Part shown: positions 13,620 to 53,547 of the stretch, piece after piece
Position numbering within the stretch: position 1 is the first letter of the stretch
How the letters are laid out: each line of letters opens with the position of its first letter
Source: Anaerolineales bacterium
GTDB lineage: Bacteria > Chloroflexota > Anaerolineae > Anaerolineales > UBA11579
Direction of reading: 5' to 3'
NCBI GenBank assembly: GCA_035446285.1
Contig: DAOMSJ010000003.1
Coordinates: 164,929 to 228,928, forward strand
Length of the DNA: 64,000 nucleotides
Translations under genes and position numbers: made by a program
The notes under the pieces: generated by a model
Told to the model about the DNA's origin: nothing
The model's database searches: none
The model's input: only the letters and a program-made list of their open reading frames with translations

Positions 13620-13624
13620 GAGTA

Positions 13625-17326: not shown

Positions 17327-17333
17327 TGTTGAT

Positions 17334-17993: not shown

Positions 17994-18716
17994 ATGACGC
18001 TGGAAGGAAAAAACATCCTCGTTACTGGCGGCGCCGTGCGCGTGGGTGCAGCCTTGGTGCGCGCTATCGCAGCAGCACAGGGTACTGCGCTCATTCACTA
18101 CAACGGTTCCACCGCCCAGGCTGCCGCCTTGAAGGCCGAGCTGGAAAGCCAGGGGGCCACCGCGCACCTGCTGCCAGCTGACCTCAGCCATCCGCAACAA
18201 GTGAGTGAGCTCATGGTGCAGGCACGCCAATACGGGCCGCTGTACGCCCTGGTCAACAATGCCGCGATCTTCGAGAATATTGAGCTGGATAGCACCAAGT
18301 TGAGTGACTGGCAGCGCCACCTGGATATCAATCTCACCGCGCCCTTCCTGCTCAGCCAGGCCTTCTGGCGCGCCGCCGGCGATGCGCCCGGCCGCATCGT
18401 CAACATCCTCGATTGGCGCGCCATGCGCCCTGGGCCAGACCATCTTCCCTACACCGTCAGCAAAGTAGCCTTGGCCGGGCTGACGCGCTCATTGGCGGCC
18501 GCCATGGCGCCCACCATCAGCGTGAACGGCATCGCCCTCGGCGCCATTCTGCCGCCCAGCCGCGGCGCAGCCAAGCAAGACATCCTGAACCACATCCCGG
18601 CGCAGCGCTGGGCCGAGCTCGACGAGGTGGGCCAGACCCTGCTCTTCCTGCTCAACGGGCCGAGCTACATCACCGGAGAGATCATTCACCTGGACGGAGG
18701 ACGCCACCTGGTATAG
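17994..18716 (+). CDS. Short-chain dehydrogenase/reductase, possibly a pteridine or dihydrofolate reductase (FolM-like) given the operon context
   Basis: ILVTGGAVRVGAAL (TGxxxxxG) and YTVSKVAL (YxxxK). Immediately followed by folB-folK. The ATG lies 6 nt after a TAGAAT. Confidence 0.75.
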   Translation: MTLEGKNILVTGGAVRVGAALVRAIAAAQGTALIHYNGSTAQAAALKAELESQGATAHLLPADLSHPQQVSELMVQARQYGPLYALVNNAAIFENIELDSTKLSDWQRHLDINLTAPFLLSQAFWRAAGDAPGRIVNILDWRAMRPGPDHLPYTVSKVALAGLTRSLAAAMAPTISVNGIALGAILPPSRGAAKQDILNHIPAQRWAELDEVGQTLLFLLNGPSYITGEIIHLDGGRHLV

Positions 18717-18718
18717 CT

Positions 18719-19075
18719 ATGGATAAGCTCATCATTAAAGACCTGCTGGTACGCGGCATCATCGGCATCAATGACTGGGAGCGCACGACCCCCCAGGACA
18801 TCCTCATTAATATTGAGATCAAGGCTGATTTAAAACAGGCCGGCCAGACCGATGACCTGAACCACAGCGTCAACTACCGCAGCGTGGCCAAGCAGGTCAT
18901 CGCCCATGCCCAGAGCGCAGAGCGCCTTACGGTAGAAGCGTTGGCCGAGGATATTGCCAAGATTTGCCTGGCGCACCCTGGCGCCAAAGCTGCCAAGGTG
19001 CGTGTGGAAAAACCCGGCGCGGTGCGTTTTGCCGCCTCGGTGGGTGTTGAGATCAAGCGCGAAGCAGGTGACTGA
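18719..19075 (+). CDS. folB: Dihydroneopterin aldolase
   Basis: 118 aa: MDKLIIKDLLVRGIIGINDWERTTPQDILINIEI...VRVEKPGAVRFA. It is the downstream part of track ORF 18413-19075, whose N-terminal part overlaps the SDR gene. Confidence 0.85.
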   Translation: MDKLIIKDLLVRGIIGINDWERTTPQDILINIEIKADLKQAGQTDDLNHSVNYRSVAKQVIAHAQSAERLTVEALAEDIAKICLAHPGAKAAKVRVEKPGAVRFAASVGVEIKREAGD

Positions 19076-39736: not shown

Positions 39737-40066
39737 ATGACCACATCGCCTAAACTCACTCCCCTACGCAAAGGACTGCTTGAATTCCTGATCCTCGTAA
39801 TCGTGTCCGCGGGCAAGGTCTACGCCGCTGACATCCTGCAGCGCCTCAACCAGACGGACTTTGTCACGCAGGAAGGCACGCTCTATCCCCTGCTGAGCAA
39901 GATGCGCCGCGAGGAGCTGCTGGATTACGAATGGCAGGAGTCAGACTCTGGCCCGCCACGCAAGTACTACACCCTCACCCCTACCGGGCGCAAACAGCTA
40001 GCCGAGTTCCGCGCCTACTGGCAGCACCTCACTCAACTTATTGATCAACTTGGAGATCGTTCATGA
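39737..40066 (+). CDS. PadR-family transcriptional regulator
   Basis: LLEFLILVIVSAGKVYAADIL...GTLYPLLSKMRREELL...RKYYTLTPTGRKQL. Confidence 0.9.
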   Translation: MTTSPKLTPLRKGLLEFLILVIVSAGKVYAADILQRLNQTDFVTQEGTLYPLLSKMRREELLDYEWQESDSGPPRKYYTLTPTGRKQLAEFRAYWQHLTQLIDQLGDRS

Positions 40067-40584
40067 AGAATTTAGTTCTTATCACCCTCAGCGGCCACAC
40101 CGCTAGCTTCAAGGCCGAACAAGACGTCTTCGATGCCCTGCACCGCTACCTGGAGCGCGCCGAGCGCAGCCTGCAAGCCGACCCTGACCATGAAGAAGTC
40201 CTGCGTGACCTTGAGCAGTCCATCGGCGACAAGCTCGCCGCCCTCCAGGCTTCCTCAGATCAGGTGCTGACCCTCGCCGATATTGATGCTGTCTTGGCAG
40301 AAGTTGGCCCCGTGGCTGGCGAACCCACCACAGCTCACACGCCTTCCAAGCGCCAACGCCGTCTGGTGCGCGTTCAGGAAGGCCAGGACATCCTGGGCAT
40401 TTGTCAGGGGCTTTCAGCGTACTCTGATATCCACGTCGATTGGATACGAACCATCTTTACTGGCTTGGCGCTGGTGACCGGTGGTGTCTTCATCCTGGTC
40501 TACTTCATTGCGGCGTTCTTCCTGCCGGTGGTGGCTACCCGCGAAGAATACTTCGCTAAATATGGCAGCAACTCACTGCAGTAA
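40063..40584 (+). CDS. PspC-domain membrane protein, co-transcribed with padR
   Basis: ILGICQGLSAYSDIHVDWIRTIFTGLALVTGGVFILVYFI is a PspC domain. 4-nt overlap with padR. Confidence 0.75.
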   Translation: MKNLVLITLSGHTASFKAEQDVFDALHRYLERAERSLQADPDHEEVLRDLEQSIGDKLAALQASSDQVLTLADIDAVLAEVGPVAGEPTTAHTPSKRQRRLVRVQEGQDILGICQGLSAYSDIHVDWIRTIFTGLALVTGGVFILVYFIAAFFLPVVATREEYFAKYGSNSLQ

Positions 40585-40600
40585 CCAAGTCAGCTCAATA

Positions 40601-40627
40601 AAAAAGGCGCCGGATCGGCGCCTTTTT
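40601..40627. terminator. Bidirectional intrinsic terminator (pspC-like gene / rpoD)
   Basis: aaaaa ggcgccg gat cggcgcc ttttt. Confidence 0.75.
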
Positions 40628-40637
40628 GTTTTCATGT

Positions 40638-41930
40638 TTAGCTCTCGCCCAAATACTCTTTGAGCTTCTTGCTCACCACGGGGTGGCGCAGGCGGCTGAG
40701 CGCCTGGGCCTCGATCTGGCGCACGCGCTCACGCGTCACGCCCATCTTGCTGCCCACTTCTTCCAGCGTGTAGGCCTGGCCGTCGAGCAGGCCATAGCGC
40801 AGCTGGAGGATACGCACTTCGCGCGGCGGCAGGCCATCGAGCACTTCGCCAAGATGCTGGCGCAGCAAGTTATACGTGGCGGAATCATCCGGAGCCGGGG
40901 CTTCGTGATCCTGAATGAAGTCACCCAACACCGAGTCTTCTTCGTCGTCCGTAGGGGTTTCCAGCGAGAGCGGGCGGCGCGCCACCTGGATCATGTTCTC
41001 TACCTTCTTGGCGGGCACCTCCAAGGCGTCAGCCAATTCTTCTACGGATGGTTCGCGCCCGAGGCGCTGGGTGAGCTGGTGCTGCACGCGCAGCAGCTTA
41101 TTGATCTGGTCACCCATGTGCACGGGCACACGGATGGTGCGGCCTTGGTCGGCAATGGCGCGCGTGACCGCCTGGCGGATCCACCAGGTGGCATAGGTAC
41201 TGAACTTGTGGCCGCGGCGGTAATCGAACTTCTTGGCGGCACGGATCAAGCCAATGTTGCCTTCCTGAATAAGATCCTGGAAAGGCACACCACGGCCCAT
41301 ATATTTCTTGGCTACGCTGATGACCAGGCGGCTGTTGGCGGTGATGAGATGCTCACGGGCAGCCCAGCCATCTTCAATATTAAAGCGATACTTGCTGCGC
41401 TGAGCGTCATCCGGGCGGCCGGTGGCCAGCACTTCACGGGCGATGCGGCCCTTTTCGATGCGCTTGGCCAGGCTCACCTCTTCAGCAGCGGTGAGCAGGG
41501 GCACTCGGCCAACCTCTTTGAGGTACAGGCCGATCATGTCATCAGTATCAATATTGGCCAGGTAGTTATCGTCAGCTTCACGCTGGCGGCGGCTCTCGTT
41601 TTCCTCTTCTTCGATATCCTCATCGCCGCTCATATCGGCATCGGCGATGGCCTCCAAGCCCTCGGGGTCATCCACATAGGCCACACCAGCGCCCAACAGG
41701 GCGGCAAAGGCCTCTTCCAGCTTGTCTACGTCACGCTCGGCCTCAGGGAAGAAGTTGAGGATGTCATCAATGGTGACATAGCCCTGCTTACGGCCTAATT
41801 CAATTAAACGGACAACTGCGGGATGATCTCGGTCTTGATCGTGCTCGTTTTCGACGATATCGCTTAAAAGTTTTTCGTTCAGCACTACGGGACGCTCTTT
41901 TCGGTTACAGACCTCACTGGGGACGGGCAT
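40638..41930 (-). CDS. rpoD: Primary RNA polymerase sigma factor (sigma-70)
   Basis: [29 protein letters not shown] (region 2.4/3.0) and a region 4 HTH ([21 protein letters not shown]). The exact start is uncertain (see findings). Confidence 0.93.
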
Positions 41931-42077
41931 AAAAAGCCAGCAACGGGGGTGCTGTTGCTGGTTTTTAACTTCCTAGTGGACAAAAACTATACAGCGAATC
42001 AAAGTGAGGAGTCAACCAGTAAATCATTTTTGCGCCCTGAATTAATGTTGCCCTGACCAGAGAATATAATCAAGGCC

Positions 42078-42380
42078 ATGCACTACGGAATTCATGGGAA
42101 ATTTACGGCCACACCCGGCAACGGCCCCGGCCTGCTCCAGATCCTGCTGCAGGCCGCCGAGGGGCTGCGCCAGAACCCGAATTGCCTGATCTACCTGGTC
42201 AGCAGCCAGCCGGGTGAGCCGGACGCCGTCTGGGTCAGCGAAGTGTGGACCAGCCCGGCCGCCCACCAGGCCTCCCTGGACGACCAGGCCACTCAAGCCC
42301 TGATCACCCAGGCGCGCCCGCTCATCGCTGGCATGTCTGAGCGTGTGGAACTGGCCACCCAGGGCGGCAAAGGCCTGTGA
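42078..42380 (+). CDS. ABM-domain (antibiotic biosynthesis monooxygenase-like) protein
   Basis: 100 aa with an ABM-like pattern (IYLVSSQPGEPDAVWVSEVWTSPAAHQASL). The ATG lies 7 nt after a TATAAT. Confidence 0.65.
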   Translation: MHYGIHGKFTATPGNGPGLLQILLQAAEGLRQNPNCLIYLVSSQPGEPDAVWVSEVWTSPAAHQASLDDQATQALITQARPLIAGMSERVELATQGGKGL

Positions 42381-42397
42381 GCCCGCTGGCGCAACGC

Positions 42398-42427
42398 TTG
42401 ACGCAAAGCCCAGGCTCAAATTACAAT
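42398..42427 (+). promoter_or_regulatory. Candidate sigma-70 promoter for hppA
   Basis: TTGACG, 18 nt, TACAAT, about 88 nt upstream of the hppA ATG, which has an AGGAG SD. Confidence 0.4.
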
Positions 42428-42515
42428 CCATCCTTGCACGCCTAACCAAGCGCCGTCGGCATTTGCCACCGGCGCTTTTTAAGGAAAGAACACTTTTTAC
42501 ACAGGAGTTATTTGC

Positions 42516-44867
42516 ATGTACGAATTAGGTTTGACCGGTTTTGAAGTCGGAGCCATCTGGGCCGTGTTTGGCGTAGCCATCCTCGGCCTGGTGTATGCGC
42601 TCTGGCTGCGCAAGGAAGTGATGGCGGCTGACGCTGGCACTCCCAAGATGCAAGAGGTATGGGGCGCCATCCGTGACGGCGCCAATGCCTACCTGGGGCG
42701 CCAACTGCGCACCATCATCCCCCTGATCGTGATCCTGACGGTGGCCATGTACCTCTCGGTGGCCATCGTGCCCCCCACCCCTGAGGCGATCGAGCGCTTC
42801 CACAACATGAGCCCTGAGCAGGTTCGCACCACCATTGGTGTCGGCCGCGCCGTGGGCTTCGTGCTGGGTGCGGTGTTCTCGCTGCTGGTGGGCCAGATCG
42901 GTATGCGCATGGCCGTGAACGCCAACGTGCGTGTGGCTTCTGAGGCGCGCAACTCCTTCGGTGGCGCGCTCAAGATCGCCTACCGCGCCGGCACCATCAC
43001 TGGCATGCTGACCGACGGCCTGGGACTGTTGGGCGGTACGGTCATCTTCATTTACTTCGGCATTGCTGCGCCGGACGCCCTGCTGGGCTTCGGCTTCGGT
43101 GGCACGCTGCTGGCGCTGTTCATGCGCGTGGGCGGTGGTATCTTCACCAAGGCGGCCGACGTAGGCGCTGACCTGGTGGGCAAAGTCGAGAACGACATCC
43201 CCGAAGACGATCCGCGCAACCCGGCTGTAGTGGCTGACCTGGTGGGTGACAACGTGGGTGACTGCGCCGGTATGGCTGCGGACATCTTCGAGTCATACGA
43301 AGTGACCATCGTCTCCGGCCTGATCCTGGGTGTTGCCCTGCACGCCCTGACCGGCCACATCGAATGGATCATCTACCCGCTGATTGTGCGTGGTATCGGT
43401 GTGCTCTCCTCCATCATCGGCACCTATGCCGTGAAGGCTGGTAAGGAAGGCAACGCTGCCGCCGCCATGAGCGCCATCTTCAGCGGCTTCCTTTCCTCCG
43501 CGGCTATCTCCGTAGTGCTGTTCTTCGCTGCGGCGCTGTTCTACCTGAAGGACGCTGGTCTGCCCGGCGGCTGGTGGCGCACCCCCGCTGCCGTGGCCAT
43601 CGGTGTATTGCTGGCCATCCTGATTGACCGCATGACCGAGTACTTCACCGGCACGCACCAGAAGCCGGTCGACGAGATCAAGAAGGCGGCGGACACTGGC
43701 CCGGCCACCCTGATTCTGCAGGGTCTGTCTGTGGGCTACGAATCCTCCGTGTGGGCTGCGGTAGTCATCGCCGCCACCATCTTCAGCTCCATCCTGCTCT
43801 TCGGCGGCATCGGCACCACCCCTGCTGAGACGATCACCTACATCCTCTACGGCGTCGCCATGACCGGTATCGGCATGCTGACGCTGACCGGCAACAATGT
43901 GGCGATGGACTCCTTCGGCCCCATTGCAGACAACGCCAACGGCATCGGTGAGATGTCGTGGAGCGGCAAGGGCGACGCCAGCACCAAGCGCGCTCAGCGC
44001 ATCATGGCTGACCTGGACGCGGTGGGTAACACCACCAAGGCCATCACCAAGGGTGTGGCCATCGGTTCGGCCGTGATCGCGGCTGTGGCCCTGTTTGGCT
44101 CCTACCTGGTGGATGTAAGCCGTGCCCAGGCCGCCGCTGGCGTGCCGCTGGCCGAGCAGATCCAGTCCATCGGTATTCGCATCGATGTGCCCCAGGTGTT
44201 CGTGGGTATGCTCATCGGTGGCGCCCTGCCCTGGCTGTTCTCCTCCTACGCCATTCAGGCCGTGAGCCGCGCGGCGGCCCTCATCGTTGAGGAATGCCGC
44301 CGCCAGTTCGCTCGTGGCGTGCTCAAGGGCAAGGTCAAGCCGGACTACAAGCAGGCCGTCAACATCTCCACTGGCGCGGCTCAGAAGGAACTGGTGCCCC
44401 TGGCCGTGTTGGCCGTGGTGACCCCGATCCTGGTGGGCTTGCTGCTGGGCGTGAACGCGCTGGGTGGCTTCCTGGCCGGCATCATCCTCTCGGGTCAGTT
44501 GCTGGCGGTGTTCATGAACAACGCCGGTGGCGCCTGGGACAATGCCAAGAAGCTGATCGAAGACGAGCCCAAGACCCCCAAGAAGAATCTGGGCAAGGGC
44601 TCCGAGCGCCACAAGGCCAGCGTGGTGGGTGACACCGTGGGTGACCCGCTGAAGGACACCGCCGGCCCGGCTCTGAACCCGATGATCAAGGTGGTGAACC
44701 TGGTCTCGGTGATCATTGCGCCGGTTGTGGTGCAAATCGATAAGCTCGGCCCCGCCGAGTGGGCGGCTGCAGGCGTGATGGTTGCGCTGCTGGCCTGGTC
44801 GATCCTCTCCAGCAAGAGCACCGGCTCCGTCGGCGCCAAGCCGAAGAAGGCCGCTGCCCGCCGCTAA
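42516..44867 (+). CDS. hppA: Membrane-bound proton-translocating pyrophosphatase (K+-independent type by signature)
   Basis: GDNVGDCAGMAADIFESY and DTVGDPLKDTAGPALNPMIK. The GNTTKA motif has Lys where K+-dependent enzymes have Ala. Confidence 0.95.
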   Translation: MYELGLTGFEVGAIWAVFGVAILGLVYALWLRKEVMAADAGTPKMQEVWGAIRDGANAYLGRQLRTIIPLIVILTVAMYLSVAIVPPTPEAIERFHNMSPEQVRTTIGVGRAVGFVLGAVFSLLVGQIGMRMAVNANVRVASEARNSFGGALKIAYRAGTITGMLTDGLGLLGGTVIFIYFGIAAPDALLGFGFGGTLLALFMRVGGGIFTKAADVGADLVGKVENDIPEDDPRNPAVVADLVGDNVGDCAGMAADIFESYEVTIVSGLILGVALHALTGHIEWIIYPLIVRGIGVLSSIIGTYAVKAGKEGNAAAAMSAIFSGFLSSAAISVVLFFAAALFYLKDAGLPGGWWRTPAAVAIGVLLAILIDRMTEYFTGTHQKPVDEIKKAADTGPATLILQGLSVGYESSVWAAVVIAATIFSSILLFGGIGTTPAETITYILYGVAMTGIGMLTLTGNNVAMDSFGPIADNANGIGEMSWSGKGDASTKRAQRIMADLDAVGNTTKAITKGVAIGSAVIAAVALFGSYLVDVSRAQAAAGVPLAEQIQSIGIRIDVPQVFVGMLIGGALPWLFSSYAIQAVSRAAALIVEECRRQFARGVLKGKVKPDYKQAVNISTGAAQKELVPLAVLAVVTPILVGLLLGVNALGGFLAGIILSGQLLAVFMNNAGGAWDNAKKLIEDEPKTPKKNLGKGSERHKASVVGDTVGDPLKDTAGPALNPMIKVVNLVSVIIAPVVVQIDKLGPAEWAAAGVMVALLAWSILSSKSTGSVGAKPKKAAARR

Positions 44868-44892
44868 GGCGCACAGCTAACCAAAATAAACC

Positions 44893-44925
44893 AAAGCCCC
44901 GCTGCAATGCAGCGGGGCTTTTTTG
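44893..44925 (+). terminator. Intrinsic terminator of hppA
   Basis: aaagccccgctgc aat gcagcggggcttt, followed by a T-run. Confidence 0.8.
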
Positions 44926-44983
44926 TGTACCGTTAACCAGATTGCAAGCTGGCTTAATCGCTATTGTTTGTTATGATTATTGC

Positions 44984-47900
44984 ATGAGGGGGAGAGTACG
45001 TGATCCCAAACTCAGTTTAAGCAATCGACGGGGGAAGACGCTGTGGCCAGCCTTGGTGCTGGCTGGCGCATTCGCACTTGGCTTGGCCATCCCTGCTCTG
45101 GCTGCCTACCTGGGCCCAGACCGTGATTACACGGTAACCGTCACAGAGTCTGAGACGGTTCGTGATTATGATAATGACAGCTGGACGCTCACTGGGCCTG
45201 AGGGAGTGTGCATCATTATCCACTCCTGCGACGAGCACCCTGGCACGAGTAATTACATCCCCGCTTGTGGCTGGAGCGGCCCCGCTGACAATGCAAGTTG
45301 CACGCCTGCCTTTAAAACGATCCAAGTCACACGCACGGAAACTCACTATTACCCAGAGGCCACGGTCTCGGGCGCAATTCAGTGTGCCCAAAACGGCGCC
45401 AACGGCTGGTGCCTTGGCAGCGGCAGCATTGAACTGAGCGCTAATGAACCGCTGGGTAGCTATAGCATTCTAGGCATTGAGGGCAGCTTAGATGGGAACA
45501 ACTTCTTCTGCTCCGGCGCCAGTTGCAGCGTGCCGGGCAGCCCAGGCAGCGCCGAGGCCAATTACTGGGCACTCTCAAGTTATGGTGACAGCTCAAGCAG
45601 CGGAAGCCAAACCCTGAAAATAGATAATGACCTGCCCACAATTGCTGGGCTGGTGAGCGGGGTACAGGGCAACGGTGGCTGGTATGTTGGCACTATTGGG
45701 CTGACTGCGGTGGGCGCAGACGCCACCAGCGGCCTTGCCGCGCAGCAAGTGCAAGTGGATGGCGGCGGTTGGCAGGACACCAGCGCCACGATCAGCAGTG
45801 ATGGCAGCTACAGTGTTGTGTTCCGTGCGGTGGACGAGGCTGGGCAGGAAAGCTACACGGCAGCGCAATCGCTGGGGCGCGATAGTGCTGCGCCAACGAT
45901 CAGCTTGAACATGTACGATGCCCCGGCGCGCGGCAGCGCTTTGGTAGCTGGCGCCGCCAGCGACGCTACCAGTGGCGTGGTAGCGGTGCATTTTTCGCTC
46001 AACGGTTCACTCAATCAGACTATCACCACATCCGGTGGCGCATGGCAACTGCACTGGGATAGCACCGAAGTGCCCAACGGGGACTATACGATACAGGTAT
46101 ACGCTGAGGACCAGGCCGGGCACTACAGCGCGCCGGTGCAGGTGAGTGTGCAGGTAGACAATGCCGTGCCGTATATCAACCTCTCGTCTGGCTGCTGGCC
46201 AATCTGGCAGGCTTTGGATCTTGACGCGGGGCCGGGTGCGGCGCCGATCAGCCTGGTGAGCCTGACGGTGAGCAACGGCAGCCAAAGCCTTACAGAAATC
46301 TTTAGCACGCCCCCACAGGGTTGGGTATGGAACCGCACGTTTAGTGATGGCAGCGTGGCCCCGATTGGTGACTATGGTCTGCAAGTTTATGTAGAGGATG
46401 CATCCGGAAATTCTTCGAGCCGCACGGCGTGCATCAGCATTCCTGAACCGGACGCGGTGGGTCTGAGCACAGAAGACGGTGGAGCACAAGCCAGCCCATT
46501 GCAGTCCTTCGTGCCTTCCAACGAGAGGGATACACCGCCCCCTTCAGCCAGCTTTGCCAATGCGCAACCCTCAGTGAGTGTGATCACAGCATTGCAACCA
46601 CAGCCGGCCTTTGTGCAGCAGCTGCAGCAGGCCACCCCGGCCAATGCGGCGGTGTGGGGGCCAGCGGCGCTGACGCTGGCGGCCGCTGCGACAGCAATTG
46701 CCATGGCGGAGAAAAACCGGCGCGATGAAGAAGAACGCCGCCGCAATGAGCCTGACCCGTTTGCCACACACCCCAACAACCTGCTGGCGGCACATCTGAG
46801 TGACAAAGAAGTGATGGCGCAAGTATTGGCGGCTGGCGCCAACCCGAACATCAGTATCGAGCAAGCGCGCCTAATCACTCACAATGCCCTGAAGGGCAAG
46901 GGGGCTTACAGCCCAACGGGGGGCGAGCTGAACGAGCAGGCGCGCCAGGCGGCCAACGAAACCAACATGGGCGGCGGTGCCAACAACTTGCTGGCGGCGC
47001 ATCTGAGCGACAAAGAAGTGATGGCGCAAGTATTGGCGGCGGGGGCCGACCCAAACATCAGTATCGAGCAGGCGCGCCTGATCACCCACAACGCCCTGAA
47101 GGGCAAGGGGGCTTACAGCCCCACCGGGGGCGAGTTGAACGAGCAGGCGCGCCAGGCGGCCAACGAAACCACAATGGGCGGTGGCGCCTACAGCGTGCAG
47201 GCGGGTGACAATTGGTTCAGCATTGCTGAGAAGATATACGGCAACCAGCGCATGGCGGGCCAACTGATCGACGCCAACGGCGGCGTCTCGATGCTGCAGC
47301 CCGGCCAGACGATTGCGCTGCCGCAGGTATCGGGCAGCGAAGCAGCCAGCCCCAACTTCAACCCCAAGACCTGGGACGAAGTGGCGAAGTTCACGCTGGC
47401 ACAGGAGGCATTGAAGAAGGCCGAGGAAGAGAAAACTAGCACCACTAGAGATCGAAAACACAAAAAGGCCCTAGGGCTCATTGCTGGCGGGGTAACAGCC
47501 GCGGCGCTTTTGTTCGGCTATCTAAGTTCACTAGAGGGCTGCGGCCTCCACCCTCAAACAGGACGCCTGCTGGGATTTCAATGTTCAGTTGCTCAAATCG
47601 ATTCCATGTCTATTTATGAACGCATTGAATGGTTTGATAAAGTTGTAGAACAAACTGGTGCAGGAGATTGGTTCAACAACATCAAAGGTATTTTGAGGTC
47701 CTTTGCTGACAGAAATAGGGCAGAACAAGGAAGTTGGCTCTCTATAGTAGACGCGCATATACTAGTAGGCATTCAAGATGGATATGCTCTCTACCAGTCA
47801 GGGGTTACTCCACGAGAGATGTCTCTCAGCGAAATTGAGTTGGCCAATAAATGGGCTCTATTCTTCGAGGCACTTCACTCCGAAGACCCCGCTCTAAATG

Positions 47901-48241
47901 CACAGACATACCCGCGTTGGGGGGATGCAGAACAAACATTTACTGATCACGGTGTTGAACAGGCAGACGTCAAACCCTCCAACGCTGAAGAGTTCTTTCT
48001 GTGGAGCGGGAATATCTACAGAAGTTGGGTAATCAAACGAGACGTTATTGAGGAAGAGAGACAAGAACTAACTCAATGGTATGCCGATCCAGCATGCGGG
48101 TTACCCCCCTGCCAGGTTTTTATCGCGGGGAAAGCCGCAATAATTTATTTTAAACTTTGGGCGAGCGACCCAAGAGTTCTACTAGACGAAAAGCACCCTG
48201 TTTTCTGGTTTGCAACTAATTTATGGTTGCTTGAACCGTGA
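44984..48241 (+). CDS. Large multi-domain envelope protein: signal-anchor, Cys-rich region, Ig-like repeats, TM, 2 x 69-aa repeats, LysM, TM, and an AT-rich unknown C-terminal module
   Basis: Start at the ATG at 44984 (MRGRVRDPKL...WPALVLAGAFALGLAIPALA), 6 nt after a TATGAT. The track start at 44759 overlaps hppA. Ig-like repeats: APTISL...DATSGVVAV...NGDYTIQVYAEDQAGHYS. LysM: YSVQAGDNWFSIAEKIYGNQRMAGQLIDANGG...GQTIALP. The last ~270 aa are encoded by visibly AT-richer DNA. Confidence 0.8.
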   Translation: MRGRVRDPKLSLSNRRGKTLWPALVLAGAFALGLAIPALAAYLGPDRDYTVTVTESETVRDYDNDSWTLTGPEGVCIIIHSCDEHPGTSNYIPACGWSGPADNASCTPAFKTIQVTRTETHYYPEATVSGAIQCAQNGANGWCLGSGSIELSANEPLGSYSILGIEGSLDGNNFFCSGASCSVPGSPGSAEANYWALSSYGDSSSSGSQTLKIDNDLPTIAGLVSGVQGNGGWYVGTIGLTAVGADATSGLAAQQVQVDGGGWQDTSATISSDGSYSVVFRAVDEAGQESYTAAQSLGRDSAAPTISLNMYDAPARGSALVAGAASDATSGVVAVHFSLNGSLNQTITTSGGAWQLHWDSTEVPNGDYTIQVYAEDQAGHYSAPVQVSVQVDNAVPYINLSSGCWPIWQALDLDAGPGAAPISLVSLTVSNGSQSLTEIFSTPPQGWVWNRTFSDGSVAPIGDYGLQVYVEDASGNSSSRTACISIPEPDAVGLSTEDGGAQASPLQSFVPSNERDTPPPSASFANAQPSVSVITALQPQPAFVQQLQQATPANAAVWGPAALTLAAAATAIAMAEKNRRDEEERRRNEPDPFATHPNNLLAAHLSDKEVMAQVLAAGANPNISIEQARLITHNALKGKGAYSPTGGELNEQARQAANETNMGGGANNLLAAHLSDKEVMAQVLAAGADPNISIEQARLITHNALKGKGAYSPTGGELNEQARQAANETTMGGGAYSVQAGDNWFSIAEKIYGNQRMAGQLIDANGGVSMLQPGQTIALPQVSGSEAASPNFNPKTWDEVAKFTLAQEALKKAEEEKTSTTRDRKHKKALGLIAGGVTAAALLFGYLSSLEGCGLHPQTGRLLGFQCSVAQIDSMSIYERIEWFDKVVEQTGAGDWFNNIKGILRSFADRNRAEQGSWLSIVDAHILVGIQDGYALYQSGVTPREMSLSEIELANKWALFFEALHSEDPALNAQTYPRWGDAEQTFTDHGVEQADVKPSNAEEFFLWSGNIYRSWVIKRDVIEEERQELTQWYADPACGLPPCQVFIAGKAAIIYFKLWASDPRVLLDEKHPVFWFATNLWLLEP
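46775..47188 (+). repeat. Two tandem, near-identical 207-bp (69-aa) coding repeats
   Basis: 46775-46981 and 46982-47188 both encode NNLLAAHLSDKEVMAQVLAAGA(N/D)PNISIEQARLITHNALKGKGAYSPTGGELNEQARQAANET(N/T)MGGGA. Confidence 0.9.
47252..47433 (+). repeat. Direct repeat copy 1 (second half of LysM plus linker), homologous to 49355-49536
   Basis: Visual alignment at a constant offset of 2103 bp. Most positions are identical (for example gcgggccaactgatcgacgccaacggcgg and ccccaacttcaaccccaagacctggga). Confidence 0.85.
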
Positions 48242-48273
48242 TTAATCTAGTTAAAATCAAGAAGGAGAATGCT

Positions 48274-49347
48274 GTGAAGATTAGGCGCCTCCCAGCGATA
48301 TTAGCATTGCTTTTTAGCCAATTGTTACTCATAGCCTGTAGCCAATCAACACAGCATGTAGAGTTGGTAAGCTATAAGGAGCTTGAAATACCGATTTCAC
48401 TACAGAACATCCCCGGATTGCGCTGGTCGTTAATATGGAGTAACGATTTGGGCCTGTCTGCAGTCGTAAGCACATCCGTACTGCGTGATGAACAATTACT
48501 TGTAAACCTTCGGGAACAGACATATGTGCCTCTTTTTTTTGATGACAGTCACATATGTATATGGGGAAGACGCTCTGGGTTTGCCTTGCTGCCTAATGAC
48601 GATATCGGATACGTGCTGTCCTGCAATTCTGGTAACACACCCTACCTAGTGAAGTTTTCAAAAGAGACGAACGAATCGACCAAGCTGGTATCTGTCAACC
48701 TGCCTGGAAGTCCAGCTTTACGTGCATACACTTGGAGTCCTGACATGAGCAGGGGCTTACAAGCCTTCAACGACTCTCTTTCAGGCACAATTTTCTGGCT
48801 CTATCCAGATATGTATGGACCGGTTGAGCTTACGCTACACCAAGGCGGGCGAAGTTGGAATATGGCTCAACCTTTCATAGAACCTGAAGGGGACATACGC
48901 GGCATTGCAGATAGCCCAGCATGGTCTCCCGATGGTTTACAGATACTTTTTTTCGGCGCTGCGTTCCGAGATAGCCTGACGGGTATTGCTAAAATCGGGG
49001 CTGCAATATCCCTATATTCGCTAAATCCCGTAACAAATGAACTATCAGAACTCCAAACAGGCTTTAGAAGTCCGGGTTTTCTGCAGTGGTCACCCAAAGG
49101 TGATTGGGTGGCTTTTGTAGCATTTCAGGATCAATTTAGCACCAAGGCCTCCGATTTGAAGTTATGGCTCTACAAAGTTTCAACTGACCAACTTTTTGAA
49201 ATTGGAAACGGAAGCTTCATGAGGATGGTTTGGGATCCAACCGGCAGCCAAATTGGTACGCTTCTTTGCGCGCCTACGACAAATGATGCTATATGTGGAA
49301 CTGTTGAACTCCGACTCTACGATGTCAGTGAGATTGTAGGCGAGTAA
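48274..49347 (+). CDS. Lipoprotein with WD40-like (PD40/TolB-type) beta-propeller repeats; partner gene of C-terminal module 1
   Basis: The GTG at 48274 is preceded by AAGGAG. Signal VKIRRLPAILALLFSQLLLIAC (lipobox). Repeats WSPDMS, WSPDGLQILFF, WSPKGDWVAF. AT-rich DNA. The track start (48238) would overlap the upstream stop as GTGA. Confidence 0.7.
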   Translation: MKIRRLPAILALLFSQLLLIACSQSTQHVELVSYKELEIPISLQNIPGLRWSLIWSNDLGLSAVVSTSVLRDEQLLVNLREQTYVPLFFDDSHICIWGRRSGFALLPNDDIGYVLSCNSGNTPYLVKFSKETNESTKLVSVNLPGSPALRAYTWSPDMSRGLQAFNDSLSGTIFWLYPDMYGPVELTLHQGGRSWNMAQPFIEPEGDIRGIADSPAWSPDGLQILFFGAAFRDSLTGIAKIGAAISLYSLNPVTNELSELQTGFRSPGFLQWSPKGDWVAFVAFQDQFSTKASDLKLWLYKVSTDQLFEIGNGSFMRMVWDPTGSQIGTLLCAPTTNDAICGTVELRLYDVSEIVGE

Positions 49348-49354
49348 ACAGCAT

Positions 49355-49536
49355 TTGGCGGGCCAACTGATCGACGCCAACGGCGGGGTCTCGATGCTGC
49401 GGCCCGGCCAAACCATCGCCCTACCGGTGGTCTCGGGCAGTGAGGCCGCCAACCCCAACTTCAACCCCAAGACCTGGGATGAGGTGGTGAAATTTACGCT
49501 CGCTCAGGAAGCGCTGCGCAAGGCGGAGGAAAAACC
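49355..49536 (+). repeat. Direct repeat copy 2, homologous to 47252-47433
   Basis: See copy 1. Confidence 0.85.
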
Positions 49537-50644
49537 TGCCGGCCCTCCGTCAACCCCACAACTGCCCGAAGGCCTGGCCGGGCTGGAGCTGGCCTTGCGC
49601 ATGCTGGCCAACGGCACGCTGACGCCGGCCGCGTTCCATGCTCTGTTCCCACATGTGGACCTGGCGAACGCCATCTACGCGGCCAACACAGGCCAGCTGA
49701 CGGCTGGCACGGTGGAATGGCTGTGGCGCGAGAACGTCTACTCGCAGGCCGCCCTGCAGCAGAAGCAAGAGGACATGGCTGCCCTGCGCAAGGCTCTGAT
49801 CGACCTGCAGGCGCGCGATATTACCGATGCCGAGCTGTTGGCTATGTTCCCACACCTGCCGATAGACCAAGCGTTAGGTATGCTAAACAACCCGGAGGGG
49901 CTGTACAACCTGTGGATGACGCATGCCGGCAAGGCCTGGGTGCAAGGCGTGGAGAATCGCAGGGCCGCAGAAGCCAGGCAGGCCAGCTATGAGGCGTGGC
50001 GTGAAGGGGAGTTGGCGGATGCAGCAATTCAGCCAACTTCTCCTCCAATAAATTGGCCTCTAGACTTCATTGATTTTCTCCGCGATTTTCCCATTAGCGG
50101 AAACTTACCAGCGTTTGAAACAAGGCATCTTCCCTATTTTAGATTACCGACCAATTCAGAGGTTGGCCAGTATGCAGAGCTCTCATATACCCCATTTGGG
50201 AATCCAGCAAACTCTATTACTGATCCTGAGGTAACTTTTGTTTCTCATTTAGCTCCGTTTGAATATGTTGTTCGCGTACTTGATGACAAAACCCCGGAAT
50301 TTGGTGTGGGGGTTAATCTCGACTCATTGCCACGAAGTACCCTCTATTTTTCATTTGAGTCCTTGGGCAGCTTTGGCAATGCAACATTGGAAATAAAAGG
50401 AATAGTAGAAAAGGATATACCCCTTGATCCAACAATTGGAACCGTAAGCTCAAGTACTGGTTATTATGTACGAATAGAACAAATTTGGCCAAAGGCCGTT
50501 GCCGCGACCGTGCTCATTGGAGCAGGGATTTTACTAGCCAGCCTATCGGTACCTGCAGCTGTAGTGGTCGGAGCAGCAATTGGTATTATTGCAGTTGCCG
50601 CTGCTGGTTTTGAGTTCTTTTTGAATGGAGGAAATGACACATAA
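49355..50644 (+). CDS. Orphan 3' gene segment: truncated LysM plus linker plus an alternative C-terminal module (ends in a hydrophobic Gly/Ala-rich TM region); no ATG or SD of its own
   Basis: It begins directly after the stop of the upstream gene with the repeat copy, in the same frame as 44984-48241 (offset 2103 = 3 x 701). The track start is a TTG that corresponds to the internal ATG codon of the main gene. The first ~225 aa are high-GC; the last ~200 aa are AT-rich. Confidence 0.5.
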   Translation: MAGQLIDANGGVSMLRPGQTIALPVVSGSEAANPNFNPKTWDEVVKFTLAQEALRKAEEKPAGPPSTPQLPEGLAGLELALRMLANGTLTPAAFHALFPHVDLANAIYAANTGQLTAGTVEWLWRENVYSQAALQQKQEDMAALRKALIDLQARDITDAELLAMFPHLPIDQALGMLNNPEGLYNLWMTHAGKAWVQGVENRRAAEARQASYEAWREGELADAAIQPTSPPINWPLDFIDFLRDFPISGNLPAFETRHLPYFRLPTNSEVGQYAELSYTPFGNPANSITDPEVTFVSHLAPFEYVVRVLDDKTPEFGVGVNLDSLPRSTLYFSFESLGSFGNATLEIKGIVEKDIPLDPTIGTVSSSTGYYVRIEQIWPKAVAATVLIGAGILLASLSVPAAVVVGAAIGIIAVAAAGFEFFLNGGNDT

Positions 50645-51378
50645 TGCCAGCATATGAAAACCTCTTTTCGTCTTACTTAACGCCCCTATTTGATCGCATT
50701 GGCAAGGCATTTTCGACCAAACAGGATTGTGAGAACCTGGTACACGCGGCTCTATATAAGGCAATAAAGGGGGAAACCACAAAGGCGAACGGACTGTATG
50801 CAGAAATTCAGCAGCAATGCACAGGCTATGACTTACAACTTGCGGAGATGCATCTCTTTTTGCTGGCCAAAAAGAAGCGCCCATGGCACACAGAAACCAT
50901 CAAGGCAATCCGTGCAACCATAGAGAAATTCCCCGGAGCCAGTTTTGCAAAAATTCTACTGGTAGAGGGGCTAATTCAAAACAAGAATCTGGCGGAAGCA
51001 CAAACAATAGTACATGCTCTACTTGAAGTCCATCCAGGCGCCAAAGGACTTTATAGATACCTGGTGCAATTTGAAATGTTTAGAAAGAACTATCAGCAAG
51101 CTGCCCTGTATGCAGAAGCATTGCCATCGGGAGTATCACGTTCCTTGCATTTATTTCTGAACAAGTTTGCCTATCCCAAACTAGGGTTGCTTGGTTGCTT
51201 CTCGTATTTTGTGCTCCTGGCTATTGCTTCATTTTTTCCAGACAGCCTGCTTTGGTCAATCACAGGTCTGATGTGGGTTGGAGGTCTCTATGTGTATAGA
51301 CAGATGCGAGATCGCGTATTGTTGCTCTGGCTCTTTATGGCTGGTCTATTAGTGCTTGTCTTCAGCTTGTTGTTCTGA
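50644..51378 (+). CDS. Small protein with a helical-repeat (TPR-like) N-terminus and C-terminal TM segments; partner gene of C-terminal module 2
   Basis: TAATG overlap with the orphan ORF. AT-rich. AEAQTIVHALLEVHPGAKGLYRYLVQFEMFRKNYQQAALYAEAL looks TPR-like. The C-terminus has 3 hydrophobic helices. Confidence 0.6.
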   Translation: MPAYENLFSSYLTPLFDRIGKAFSTKQDCENLVHAALYKAIKGETTKANGLYAEIQQQCTGYDLQLAEMHLFLLAKKKRPWHTETIKAIRATIEKFPGASFAKILLVEGLIQNKNLAEAQTIVHALLEVHPGAKGLYRYLVQFEMFRKNYQQAALYAEALPSGVSRSLHLFLNKFAYPKLGLLGCFSYFVLLAIASFFPDSLLWSITGLMWVGGLYVYRQMRDRVLLLWLFMAGLLVLVFSLLF

Positions 51379-51500
51379 ACCCAGACGAGTCGCGAAGTAG
51401 AGGCAACAATAAAAGGTTATGTGTTTTACAAGAATTCAAGCCGCCATGGTACAACGAACTCAACTTAAATACATGTTTTCATTTGTTGCAGGAGGGAAAC

Positions 51501-51971
51501 ATGAAATCACACATCCGCATACTTGCACTCAGCGCCGCAACTGGCACCCTCGCCGCCTGGCTGCTAGCCGCCTTTGGCGGCCCGGCACCTAGCACGCATC
51601 TGGCGCAGCAGCTCGGGCTGCGTAGTGGCTACCTGCTGGCCGCTATTCTGGGCGGCGGGTTGGGCCTGTGGCTGGCGATGGGCGGCAGCAAGCGCATCGC
51701 TGGCTTTGGCGGCTGGCTGCTGGGCGTGCTGGCCGGCTGGCTGCTGTGGCGCTTTGGCAGCCCGCACATGGGCCTGATCGAGCTCATACTGAGCTCGGCG
51801 TTCGGTGAGGCGGCCGCCGCCTACACCAGCGTGGTGGCGCTGGCGCTGTTCTTCGCGGCGATGCGCATCGGGGGCGCGTGGGGACAGAAGGCGCTGGCCG
51901 CCCTGCTGGACCTGGCGCAGCGCGTGCGTGCCCGCCGCCAGGCCGCGGCGGCGCTGGCTGCGGCGGGTTGA
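51501..51971 (+). CDS. Small high-GC membrane protein (Gly/Ala/Leu-rich, about 4 TM)
   Basis: The ATG at 51501 is preceded by AGGAGG. MKSHIRILALSAATGTLAAWLLAAF.... Its last ~30 codons are duplicated at 52887-52977. Confidence 0.6.
   Translation: MKSHIRILALSAATGTLAAWLLAAFGGPAPSTHLAQQLGLRSGYLLAAILGGGLGLWLAMGGSKRIAGFGGWLLGVLAGWLLWRFGSPHMGLIELILSSAFGEAAAAYTSVVALALFFAAMRIGGAWGQKALAALLDLAQRVRARRQAAAALAAAG
51863..51953 (+). repeat. Direct repeat copy 1 (3' end of 51501-51971), homologous to 52887-52977
   Basis: 91 bp at a constant offset of 1024 bp, with only about 2 mismatches seen by eye. Confidence 0.9.
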
Positions 51972-52118: not shown

Positions 52119-52838
52119 ATGACTAAACCAAGCCAAGAAGCTATCCGCAAAGTCGCGGCAGAATATGACGCGACTTTAAAGAACAATCACATCAGGTCCG
52201 CGCTAGATTCTTTGTTTGTACTTATCACCTTCTGGATACTCTCAGTTCTAGTTTCCCGCACAAGCTTTACAAGCTCGCTAAACATCCTACCTGGACTCCT
52301 GATTACTTCTAGTTGCCTCTTAGCAGTGATTAGTCTGAAATGGATTGACAAATCTATAGCGCGCAGAAAGAGGCGAATGCAGAAAATGATTGTCTCTGCC
52401 ACCCTTGGCACTCTGTTCTTGAACTGTCTGACCATTCTTTTGCTGAAAATCTCACTGGAAGTGCTATTTACTTTTAGAAGCACTCCGCGGGGTGATTTAC
52501 TGGTTGTTATTTACATCATAAGTCTCCCTCTTTTCGCTCTTCTGGCACTATATTTCTCGCCTAAATCGTACTCAGTTACAAGAAATCAACTTGAAGAATT
52601 CTCAACCAAAATGAAACTTCCCCTCCTTGGTGGGTTAATCCAATCCTTTCTAGTTGGCGCAGGCATTCTGGGTGGTGCGCTAATAGTACGTTCAGGTTCT
52701 AATGCCCCTATTTATCTAGCATCATTTACTTTTTATGTTGGAGCTGTTCTATTCCTATTACTAGGCGTCATGGGCACACACAGATACTTCACAATCTTAA
52801 AAGCACTAAGAGAGGGTGAACTAACAGTGGCTTCGTAA
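52119..52838 (+). CDS. AT-rich polytopic membrane protein of unknown function
   Basis: 239 aa, about 6 hydrophobic segments, no motif recognised. It lies between the 91-bp direct repeats. Confidence 0.55.
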   Translation: MTKPSQEAIRKVAAEYDATLKNNHIRSALDSLFVLITFWILSVLVSRTSFTSSLNILPGLLITSSCLLAVISLKWIDKSIARRKRRMQKMIVSATLGTLFLNCLTILLLKISLEVLFTFRSTPRGDLLVVIYIISLPLFALLALYFSPKSYSVTRNQLEEFSTKMKLPLLGGLIQSFLVGAGILGGALIVRSGSNAPIYLASFTFYVGAVLFLLLGVMGTHRYFTILKALREGELTVAS

Positions 52839-52886: not shown

Positions 52887-52995
52887 GCGCATCGGGGGCG
52901 CGTGGGGGCAGAAGGCGCTGGCCGCCCTGCTGGACCTGGCGCAGCGCGTGCGTGCCCGGCGCCAGGCCGCGGCGGCGAGCAGCCAAGCGCACTAG
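52887..52995 (+). pseudogene. Displaced original 3' end of the 51501-51971 gene (fragment with its own stop and terminator)
   Basis: Reads RIGGAWGQKALAALLDLAQRVRARRQAAAASSQAH-stop, with no upstream start, and is immediately followed by the terminator at 53005-53032. Confidence 0.6.
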
Positions 52996-53004
52996 TACTA
53001 AAAC

Positions 53005-53032
53005 AAAGAGCCCGCCAATTGGCGGGCTCTTT
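53005..53032. terminator. Bidirectional intrinsic terminator
   Basis: aaagagcccgcc aatt ggcgggctcttt. Confidence 0.8.
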
Positions 53033-53050
53033 GTTTCTTTTGCTTTCAGG

Positions 53051-53476
53051 CTACTTGGCGTGCTGCTGCCAGCCGTCCCAGTAACCGGGGCCGCTGGTGA
53101 AGTAGTCGTAGTTAGCCTGGATGTCGTCACGGAGGTTAAGCGTCTCGCCTGCGGTGAGGGTCTTAACCGTGTCCATCACCACGGCGTGGCCGTGGTGGTT
53201 GCTGCCTTCGTAGTGCTCAGCAAAACCAGGGGTGCCGGCCGGCTTGGCCTGCTTCTGGTCCGCCTTGGCTTCGTACGCATCAGGCACTTCATCCTCGGTG
53301 TAGATGGCCTCAAAGGGGCACTCGGGGATGCAGGCACCGCAGTCAATGCAGGTGTTAGGGTCAATGTAGTACCAGGGGTGTTGATCCTGGGGCATACCGG
53401 GAACGATACATTCAACCGGGCAAACCTCTACGCAACCACCGTCGCGCAGGCACAAGCTAGTGATGATGTGGGTCAT
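53051..53476 (-). CDS. Ferredoxin (iron-sulfur clusters) with a C-terminal extension
   Basis: CLRDGGCVEVCP and CIDCGACIPECP cluster motifs. The ATG at 53476 is preceded by GGAG. Confidence 0.85.
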   Translation of the reverse strand: MTHIITSLCLRDGGCVEVCPVECIVPGMPQDQHPWYYIDPNTCIDCGACIPECPFEAIYTEDEVPDAYEAKADQKQAKPAGTPGFAEHYEGSNHHGHAVVMDTVKTLTAGETLNLRDDIQANYDYFTSGPGYWDGWQQHAK

Positions 53477-53547
53477 TTGCAAATCTCCGTTGAGGCAATT
53501 CTACACCCTGGTTGTTATTTTTGCTAGCCCTCTTTTAGCGGAAAGTA

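Follow-up and report, generated by a model that had tools for sequence, protein, structure and literature searches.

Displacement of protein C-termini that leaves orphan tips behind has so far been described for the Rhs, CdiA, MafB and LXG families, each of which has a known delivery route. The model put forward for rhs genes invokes homologous recombination that involves circular intermediates and displaces C-termini, which accumulate as arrays of dissociated tips (PMC2935791). At the genome level, a toxin/immunity module is defined by a conserved pair of tip and neighbour that moves among unrelated carriers (PMC3482391), and immunity proteins that are lipoproteins or contain transmembrane (TM) segments are taken as a sign that the toxin acts in the periplasm or on the membrane (PMC12419801). 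Here we analyse a 64,000-nt stretch of DNA, referred to as the window, from an Anaerolineales bacterium (Chloroflexota; GCA_035446285.1, contig DAOMSJ010000003.1, positions 164,929-228,928, forward strand). It contains a gene encoding 1085 aa (44984-48241), whose high-GC body runs into an AT-rich C-terminal domain, here called CT1; a gene for a beta-propeller lipoprotein (partner 1) follows, and then a displaced 'orphan' C-terminus (49355-50644), whose own terminal part we call CT2. The same evolutionary process appears to have acted here on a carrier in which no delivery device can be recognised, and in a phylum that is poorly studied and mostly uncultured. We consider it likely that the locus is of the polymorphic toxin type and that its carrier had so far gone unrecognised, with toxicity and delivery as the parts that we infer from sequence.

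Relation to described systems

The locus does not belong to the Rhs, CdiA, LXG or MafB families, since the carrier domains that define them were tested for and are absent. Its likeness to Rhs orphan-tip loci (PMC2935791, PMC3150448, PMC3967940) nevertheless extends to a GC-rich body, an AT-rich variable tip and a cognate gene directly downstream. As in those loci, the old tip persists downstream: it is in frame, is still attached to a piece of the conserved region and lacks initiation signals of its own. Integration of a circle fits the duplication. CT1 and its propeller partner even occur themselves as Rhs tip/immunity pairs. Unlike Rhs proteins, however, the window carrier lacks the RHS/YD repeats, the shell and the DPxG motif for autoproteolysis; its junction lies in the linker that follows a LysM domain, its tip has a TM anchor of its own, and no type VI secretion system (T6SS) or other delivery partner is evident. 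With CdiA/CdiI (PMC3150448) the locus shares a surface carrier, a polymorphic C-terminus, an adjacent putative immunity gene and orphan C-terminal modules that include a stretch preceding the variable part. In contrast to CdiA, the window carrier lacks two-partner secretion (TPS), FHA and VENN domains as well as CdiB, and its host is a monoderm-type member of the Chloroflexota.

Bacillus subtilis WapA is an example of a Sec-dependent polymorphic toxin, and proteins of the WapA type use RHS repeats. The window carrier differs from them in that it is predicted to be a multi-pass membrane protein with a probably cytoplasmic LysM and a membrane-tethered tip. The closest formal class is that of the Sec-only polymorphic toxins with adhesion domains: as in this 'T2SS/Sec' class (T2SS, type II secretion system), a signal peptide is the sole export device and adhesion or peptidoglycan-binding domains precede the tip, and LysM is named among the accessory domains of the class (PMC3482391). 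As for TelC/TipC (PMC12419801), an immunity protein that is a lipoprotein or is membrane-anchored implies action outside the cytoplasm on envelope targets; unlike TelC, CT1 has no detectable similarity to TelC itself or to any solved structure, and membership of the Lipocone superfamily is unsupported. Several of the features by which polymorphic toxins are recognised (PMC3482391) can be found at the locus, namely a variable C-terminus with a sharp junction, a tip that occurs on different carriers and a co-inherited partner downstream (established for CT1 but not for CT2); the orphan moreover retains the conserved repeat described below, and a related genome (L003) has further orphan fragments. 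Neither a carrier of this architecture nor the pairing of CT1 with a propeller was described in the literature searched.

Displacement architecture of the main gene

The body of the main gene comprises aa 1-817 (44984-47434; this and all following features are on the forward strand unless noted otherwise), as delimited by Pfam and NCBIfam matches, hydropathy and comparison with the related genomes L001 and L003. Within the 1085-aa open reading frame (ORF) the composition changes abruptly, as claimed in an original prediction made from the sequence alone, which had placed the switch at about 47436. GC content at third codon positions (GC3) falls from 0.69 in the body to 0.42 in the CT1 part at ~47435, is 0.44 in partner 1, and reaches 0.80 in the N-terminal part of the orphan. 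Overall GC content changes from 0.647 (47100-47399) to 0.473 (47400-47699) and then to 0.66 (49350-49650), and is lower again from ~50000. The AT-rich module 1 (47435-48241), defined by GC3 and by family search, encodes a cluster of basic residues, a third TM segment (TM3, aa 829-847) and CT1 (aa ~852-1085), which begins with 'CG'. The ORF map confirmed the predicted extents of the main gene, the orphan and a third ORF (50644-51378).

Self-comparison of the locus, performed together with the sliding-window GC analysis, recovered a direct repeat of 186 nt. Copy 1 (47243-47428) covers the second half of LysM and the linker, and copy 2 (49346-49531) begins at the final bases of the partner 1 stop codon, a junction that is identical in L003. 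The copies are 83% identical (BLAST: 84% over 176 nt, E = 7e-50), and inspection of their alignment gave longest perfect runs of 31 and 27 nt. They are offset by 2103 nt, that is, 3 x 701, in agreement with the predicted repeat of ~180 bp and its exact offset. The orphan ORF of 429 aa is also, as predicted, in the frame of the main gene, its TTG start being aligned to an internal ATG of that gene ('CGCATGGCGGGCC' vs 'CATTTGGCGGGCC'). Translation of the orphan would need re-initiation at this TTG, which lies 8 nt past the partner 1 stop codon and has a poor Shine-Dalgarno (SD) sequence.

In-silico deletion between the repeats leaves an uninterrupted ORF of 1185 aa, so the predicted excision of module 1 with its partner, and the in-frame fusion of the body to the orphan, holds as arithmetic. 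The idea of a maintained switch fared less well, because the orphan is decaying in L003 (see below). Repeat-mediated switching between the modules is possible.

Related genomes and the history of the locus

L001 (GCA_026129255.1) is syntenic with the window, with genes for a sigma factor and an H+-pyrophosphatase (H+-PPase) upstream, and the two bodies are 84% identical in nucleotides and 80% in amino acids. In the L001 protein, P0002 (1105 aa), the LysM-linker runs straight into an orphan-type helical domain within one ORF, and BLAST self-comparison found no internal repeats in the L001 locus. Together, the continuous ORF and the lack of repeats show the undisrupted, ancestral arrangement. 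The search of related genomes for the same body with other C-termini, which the original prediction had proposed, thus found the body joined directly to an orphan-type C-terminus. The orphan itself matches the native C-terminal half of P0002, with 62% amino acid identity over 283 residues and 72.6% nucleotide identity.

For L003 (GCA_964623375.1), which was co-assembled independently, identity to window positions 40000-49386 is 95.2%; this stretch spans the transition from body to CT1, partner 1, and the point at which the partner 1 stop codon meets the repeat. As both junctions are present in L003, the insertion is older than the split between the window genome and L003 and is no assembly artefact. 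The displacement of the C-terminus, the core claim of the original prediction, is thus documented by its undisrupted form in L001 and by both junctions in L003. In L003, just 31 nt of repeat copy 2 are left and ~260 nt of the 5′ part of the orphan have been deleted, losses that make the orphan look like a decaying relic and not like a maintained switch. The three genomes form a rare before-and-after series, in which L001 is undisrupted, the window shows the displacement, and L003 shows it with the orphan in decay.

Past window position ~50016, the window and L003 share nothing, although the 9.4 kb upstream are 95% identical. The bodies of the window, L001 and L003 are 80-95% identical in amino acids, while beyond ~47435 and ~50000 the C-termini are unrelated or less than 40% identical. 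AT-rich islands are found in L001 and L003 at the same relative positions with different content; the positions of the AT-rich segments are conserved and their content is exchanged. A more distant relative, L002 (49-55% amino acid identity), has the body, an ORF with six TM segments and an m160 homologue. Still more distant relatives of the body (31-33% identity) lie on metagenome contigs of ~45-52% GC (L013, 535-6195; L014, 2668-6339; L015, 166-4768). Their proteins have the signal 'ALAAYLGP', a Cys-rich/Ig ectodomain and the TM motif 'LWG..AAA' in common with the window body, and they give no Pfam matches; at the C-terminus they carry other soluble domains, and behind each lies a small cytosolic ORF, an arrangement like that of toxin/immunity genes.

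CT1 is a tip shared with Rhs proteins

An exhaustive HMMER search with aa 801-1085 of the main protein yielded a widespread CT1 family of 205 cluster representatives at E < 1e-3 (66 at E < 1e-10), and the domain is C-terminal in every matched protein. It occurs on RHS, TM-anchored, signal-peptide-only, T7SS-like (T7SS, type VII secretion system) and Ig-body proteins. RHS-repeat proteins account for eight of the nine long carriers scanned (611-3145 aa; body-family proteins excluded), and the Rhs motif 'NxPxxxxDPxG' is immediately upstream of CT1 in at least 49 of 150 members. The RHS-repeat carriers of the family reach 3232 aa in length. Nine members have a TM helix immediately upstream of CT1, and in others the N-terminus is a signal peptide or is helical and T7SS-like. 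P0124 is a stand-alone member that consists of a signal-anchor and CT1 and nothing more, and P0125 is a distant relative of the window body (35% identical in the ectodomain) that has the same TM and 'CG' junction before CT1.

In the family alignment, the start of CT1 coincides with the Cys that follows 'DPxGH' in the Rhs members. This DPxGH site is the known boundary of Rhs tips. In the window protein, TM3 and 'SSLEG|CG' precede CT1 where Rhs family members have 'DPSGH|C', and the autoproteolysis motif is absent. A lipobox at 'LEGC' before CT1 was considered and rejected, because its Cys is a residue of the domain proper, at the alignment position where Rhs members have the Cys behind DPxGH. 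By homology, identification of CT1 as a toxin tip is supported.

The original prediction had recognised no motif in this C-terminal domain, and the databases gave the same answer: Pfam, at E <= 1 on 61 family members, found no common family, and PADLOC defence models gave no match. CT1 carries a conserved Cys pair, and D73, E133, E152 and R163 (numbered on the translation of 47534-48238) are invariant in the family alignment. AlphaFold2 with the family alignment predicts an all-alpha domain of ~12 helices with high confidence (predicted local distance difference test, pLDDT, 95.7; predicted template modelling score, pTM, 0.91). Foldseek comparison of this model with the PDB gave no match and with viral structures nothing meaningful, a null result that opposes assignment of CT1 to TelC/Lipocone, colicin or lysozyme-like folds. 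PDB sequence searches with the single sequences of CT1, the orphan and partner 1 found no matches, and the CT1 profile matched just the end of an Rhs shell upstream of the domain. Viral contigs contained no CT1 relatives and so give no indication that a phage served as the vehicle. The locus thereby exposes a widespread tip family with no Pfam model, a confidently predicted fold that lacks a solved relative, and a TolB-like partner.

Partner 1 is linked to CT1 across unrelated carriers

Partner 1 was mapped as an ORF of 369 aa (48238-49347). Its start is most likely the GTG at 48274 (48274-49347, 357 aa), in view of a strong SD sequence, AAGGAG, at 48262-48267 and the same call in L003. The predicted beta-propeller lipoprotein gene is thus confirmed as such, but its start is moved from the GTG at 48238 that overlaps the stop codon of the main gene. 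The protein is of the TolB/PD40 type: it matches Pfam PD40 (PF07676) with 22.4 bits against a cut-off of 20.9, and a profile of the partner family matches TolB and S9-peptidase propellers in the PDB (E = 5e-9 to 1e-7). It has the lipobox LLIAC, whose Cys is invariant in seven of seven sequences, and the family has conserved Cys pairs and W-S-P-D-G blades.

A genome scan with an 11-sequence alignment revealed eight further CT1 loci in genomes of Chloroflexota, Nitrospiraceae and Limnocylindrales. In all seven of those that have downstream sequence (L005-L011), a homologue of partner 1 is found directly behind the CT1-like tip. The homologues in L005-L010 were detected with tblastn (24-28% identity, E = 1e-7 to 8e-29) and the one in L011 by ORF inspection and alignment. 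L010 (1217-9121), from a metagenome-assembled genome of the Nitrospiraceae, is a classical Rhs orphan array, in which four near-identical 3′ fragments of the core differ in their tips and are each followed by a small ORF; the third fragment bears a CT1-like tip and a propeller lipoprotein. In other high-GC genomes as well, the CT1/partner modules are AT-rich relative to their flanks.

We regard partner 1 as the putative cognate immunity protein of CT1, and the two as a concrete candidate toxin/immunity pair. The lipoprotein partner, the Cys pairs in CT1 and partner, and the stand-alone members made of signal-anchor and CT1 all suggest that CT1 acts outside the cytoplasm. The original prediction had invoked the logic of orphan C-terminal/immunity arrays in Rhs and CdiA loci; for module 1 the occurrence on Rhs tips and the constant lipoprotein neighbour agree with this analogy, but for module 2 (CT2) it is unsupported. 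Likewise, of the two proposed module-specific partner genes, partner 1 is specific in this sense, while the gene behind the orphan is a member of the locus at large (see below).

The carrier

The body contains a signal peptide or anchor ('ALAAYLGP'), a Cys-rich region, Ig-like/OmpL47-type domains, a probable second TM segment (TM2), two repeats of 69 aa, and LysM (aa 736-780) with the linker 'PNFNPKTWDEV.KFTLAQEAL' behind it. The Ig-like domains that had been suggested were thereby recovered by Pfam and NCBIfam. The LysM assignment is less clear-cut, as PF01476 scores 17.7 bits in the window protein, below the cut-off of 20.9, but 24.1 bits in its orthologue P0002; the window protein does show the LysM-type pattern Y.V..GD....IA...L...N....L..GQ.I.LP. 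The two 69-aa repeats, also anticipated, are a tandem duplication of 207 nt each (46773-46979 and 46980-47186) with 91% identity. This unit is present in one copy in L001 and L002 and in two copies in L003 that are just 77% identical, a difference that suggests gene conversion in the window lineage.

Dedicated delivery or pre-toxin domains, whose absence had been remarked on in the original prediction, were not found by Pfam and NCBIfam either: the main protein has no RHS, FHA, VENN, LXG or WXG domain and no MafB-N (DUF1020), and its N-terminus is a Sec-type signal peptide or anchor. PF05593 and the TEN_YD-shell gave no match at E <= 0.1 in the 1085-aa protein, Pfam detected no TPS, FHA or VENN pre-toxin domain, and VENN is also absent from the translated sequence. 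The same scans found no releasing peptidase. Among domains that might serve in trafficking, processing or release, just the Ig-like/OmpL47 and LysM domains were found, and the sole export signal is that for Sec.

Besides TM3, two hydrophobic segments are conserved, the first being the N-terminal signal or anchor and the second an Ala-rich stretch (aa 556-574; hydropathy 1.58). The second of these, the probable TM2 ('LWG..AAA....A.A' plus a basic cluster), is kept even in relatives that are just 31-33% identical. Basic clusters lie after TM2 ('EKNRRDEEERRR') and before TM3 ('RDRKHKK'), that is, on the inner side of both. These segments and clusters imply an out-in-out topology, in which the Ig-like ectodomain and CT1 lie outside and the part between them, with the repeats, LysM and linker, lies inside the cell. 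This agrees with the separate indications, given above, that CT1 acts outside the cytoplasm. A cytoplasmic location is unusual for LysM. The description of the carrier as wall-associated is accordingly uncertain: its LysM and Ig-like parts are present, but the likeliest topology places LysM inside the cell.

The orphan C-terminus and the downstream TPR/TM gene

The orphan consists of a high-GC helical domain up to ~50000 and the AT-rich CT2 (aa ~215-429; GC3 0.32), which includes a C-terminal TM hairpin (aa 377-417). A word-indexed homologue search with the orphan found only itself and P0122, detected no relatives of CT2, and missed P0002, which is 62% identical; the same tool also missed P0002 when queried with that protein's own C-terminal 226 aa, so that its negatives are unreliable for membrane segments rich in Ala, Gly and Leu. 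The AlphaFold2 model of the entire orphan, built from a four-sequence alignment, has a pLDDT of 43.9, with values below 50 across CT2. The hairpin C-termini of P0002, P0003 and P0122 are related to one another, and each is followed by a multi-TM ORF of 187-206 aa; by analogy, such pairs resemble pore-former/immunity or membrane recognition pairs. An effector role for module 2 is unsupported.

The next gene (50644-51378; 244 aa; GC3 0.47) encodes a protein with Pfam matches to tetratricopeptide repeats (TPR) and three C-terminal TM segments. It overlaps the orphan in a TAATG at 50644, as had been predicted, and a GGAGG SD sequence is found at 50629-50633. Homologues with 28-51% identity occupy the same position in L001 (14210-14956) and L003 (12082-12825). 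Because of these positional homologues in two relatives, the TPR/TM gene is not obviously specific to module 2, and it appears to be a fast-evolving, positionally conserved member of the locus.

Proposed mechanism and alternative explanations

We propose that the carrier is a Sec-exported, multi-pass envelope protein with a Cys-rich/Ig-like ectodomain, a TM segment, internal repeats, LysM and a variable C-terminus. The ancestral gene, as in L001, would have ended in the helical domain and, behind it, a C-terminus that was variable and AT-rich and formed a membrane hairpin. An AT-rich cassette of ~2.1 kb would then have entered the LysM-linker by homologous recombination, in an ancestor shared by the window genome and L003. 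A Campbell-type crossover of a circular intermediate of 2103 bp would fit the data best; its load would have been ~186 nt of LysM-linker homology, the signal-anchor TM3 with CT1, and the beta-propeller lipoprotein gene. As a result of integration, there would have been two copies of the linker, CT1 would have become the new end of the body, and the old C-terminus would have moved downstream as an in-frame orphan. With L001 as a proxy for the recipient, the main-gene copy equals L001 at eight of eight informative sites in the left part of the repeat, and the orphan copy equals L001 at five of five at the right end, a split expected of hybrid copies from one crossover. CT1 would act as an extracytoplasmic antibacterial toxin domain on the cell envelope, and the propeller lipoprotein would be its cognate immunity protein. 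The same exchange of cassettes may have taken place at a second junction, the end of the helical domain at ~50000, and behind m162, a gene for a 162-aa membrane protein further downstream; with exchange at all three places, the 47.4-52.9 kb region would be a hypervariable cassette array. The hybrid pattern of the repeat and the 98%-identical displacement repeat at m162 make the circular-intermediate model testable in metagenomic long reads.

Several observations weigh against this reading. The carrier has none of the delivery or release devices that Pfam and NCBIfam recognise (RHS shell, TPS, LXG, PAAR, HINT, protease), and CT1 has no recognisable catalytic fold (best Foldseek match to the PDB, E = 0.66 with a template modelling score of ~0.2). 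The CT1 cassette also has its own signal-anchor, so fusion to the body could be a passive result of the recombination site instead of a means of delivery, and the body may be unnecessary for export of CT1. Neither the ancestral-type hairpin C-termini, with their multi-TM ORFs, nor CT2 can be tied to a known toxin, and carriage of toxins may not be the main role of the body family. Relatives of the body are few (the window, L001-L003, P0125 and L013-L015), and the middle of the repeat has a mixed site pattern that fits a single crossover just loosely.

The lack of a delivery domain would suit a locus that is no toxin system at all and serves instead as a hypervariable envelope or cell-cell recognition locus. 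In that case the body, TPR/TM, m162 and multi-TM proteins would form a conserved membrane complex whose membrane and C-terminal parts diversify horizontally, for instance for kin recognition in filaments or evasion of phages, and CT1 with the propeller would be an enzyme of the envelope and a regulator of that enzyme, captured by chance. All four related genomes, even the distant L002, do have the body together with a multi-TM ORF and a homologue of m160; the hairpin C-termini co-vary with the multi-TM ORFs of 187-206 aa (the end of the L001 gene and its TM191 neighbour are 74-83% identical to an orphan pair in L003); and neither CT2 nor the hairpin C-termini have similarity to toxins. A housekeeping enzyme would, however, hardly be expected to recur on many unrelated carriers right behind the motif for Rhs tip cleavage, as CT1 does; the fixed pairing of CT1 with a lipoprotein inside Rhs orphan arrays is likewise hard to explain, and the proteins of L013 and L015 have other soluble domains at their ends and a small cytosolic ORF behind them, a typical toxin/immunity layout. 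We therefore judge a pure recognition locus unlikely. The abrupt GC switches, and the fact that all related records are metagenome-assembled genomes, also raised the question of a chimera assembled from a high-GC and a low-GC organism. We rejected this explanation as having next to no probability: reading frames cross every junction, the repeats are diverged copies and not assembly duplicates, the independent assembly L003 has both junctions of the first island at 95% identity, and L001 has AT-rich islands with other content at the same relative positions.

A different question is whether, in a toxin/immunity locus, the orphan is anything beyond the decaying relic of a single transfer, with no programmed or recurrent switching and with the in-frame offset as a by-product of integration. 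The erosion of the orphan and repeat copy 2 in L003, the modest identity of the window repeats with their short perfect runs, and the TTG start with its poor SD sequence all speak for a relic. Yet the frame of 429 aa is still fully open, and orphan Rhs tips of Salmonella have been shown to be reactivated by such recombination (PMC3967940). The content past ~50016 is, furthermore, wholly different in the window and L003 despite the near-identity upstream, which indicates that cassettes at the orphan position are still being exchanged. We consider the chances of a mere relic to be evenly balanced; such a relic would refine the polymorphic toxin-type reading and does not exclude it.

A bolder reading joins several of these elements into an unrecognised class of polymorphic effectors in filamentous Anaerolineales. 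Its multi-pass carrier would combine an Ig-like ectodomain, a TM segment and a cytoplasmic LysM/helical region, with no device of the RHS, T5SS (type V secretion system), T6SS or T7SS kind, and would accept self-exporting cassettes of signal-anchor, toxin and immunity gene at two nested junctions via small circles. CT1 would be a new all-alpha, envelope-targeting toxin fold that is neutralised by a TolB-like propeller lipoprotein, and the hairpin/multi-TM pairs and m162 cassettes would be further toxin/immunity or kin-recognition pairs that work within the membrane between filament cells. We offer this combination tentatively, as it is somewhat doubtful that all of its parts hold at once.

Neighbouring cassettes and flanking sequences

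The AT-rich islands of the 47.4-52.9 kb region are the sole ones of the window. A hairpin scan found strong terminators at both edges of the 45.0-53.0 kb block and none other within it. The upstream one, a bidirectional terminator between the H+-PPase gene and the main gene (44893-44921), has a 13-bp stem with nine GC pairs and T runs on both strands, and the downstream one (53001-53036) is a perfect 36-nt palindrome with a 16-bp stem. Given that the strong terminators are confined to these edges, the orphan is probably transcribed. A sigma-70 promoter scan gave six matches against 5.7 in shuffled sequence and is uninformative on orphan expression in this phylum.

Behind the TPR/TM gene follows m162 (51483-51971), identified from the ORF map and from relatives, whose product is a Gly/Ala-rich, glycine-zipper-like membrane protein of 162 aa (GC3 0.83) that matches no Pfam family. 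Its amino acid identity is 90% to L001 and 55% to L002, L003 has fragments of it, and in all four genomes it adjoins the big gene. Self-comparison revealed a second repeat here, of 91 nt, the copies of which are 98% identical and offset by 1024 nt, no multiple of 3. Copy 1 (51863-51953) is the present 3′ end of m162. Copy 2 (52887-52977), 91% identical to L001 15337-15423, is the displaced former 3′ end, and this old gene end retains its terminator, the one at the downstream edge of the block. The copies bracket an AT-rich cassette (GC3 0.40) that, according to the ORF map, contains a 239-aa ORF with about seven TM segments (52119-52838), for which no relatives were found in the related loci. 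The m162 repeat thus follows the same displacement logic as the main gene, 2.5 kb further downstream. Homologues of m162 are always followed by variable AT-rich multi-TM genes, and m162 may be a second carrier/partner pair.

From ~53040 onward, where a ferredoxin-like ORF lies on the minus strand (53051-53482), synteny with L001 and L003 stops. In these two genomes the array ends at a minus-strand operon for an ABC-2 transporter, which is absent from the downstream region of the window that was compared. L003 has at 10900-19000 an AT-rich array of ~12 small, mostly multi-TM ORFs and three to four 5′ fragments of m160, along with an orphan copy (82.6% nucleotide identity) of the C-terminal end of the L001 gene and its 191-aa TM neighbour. 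This region has the look either of a graveyard in which cassettes have piled up or of a poly-immunity array. The intergenic region and hairpin upstream of the main gene (L003 5232-5418; window 44765-44977) are duplicated within it at 15286-15474 with 95% identity, and the duplicate is joined directly to an m160 5′ fragment.

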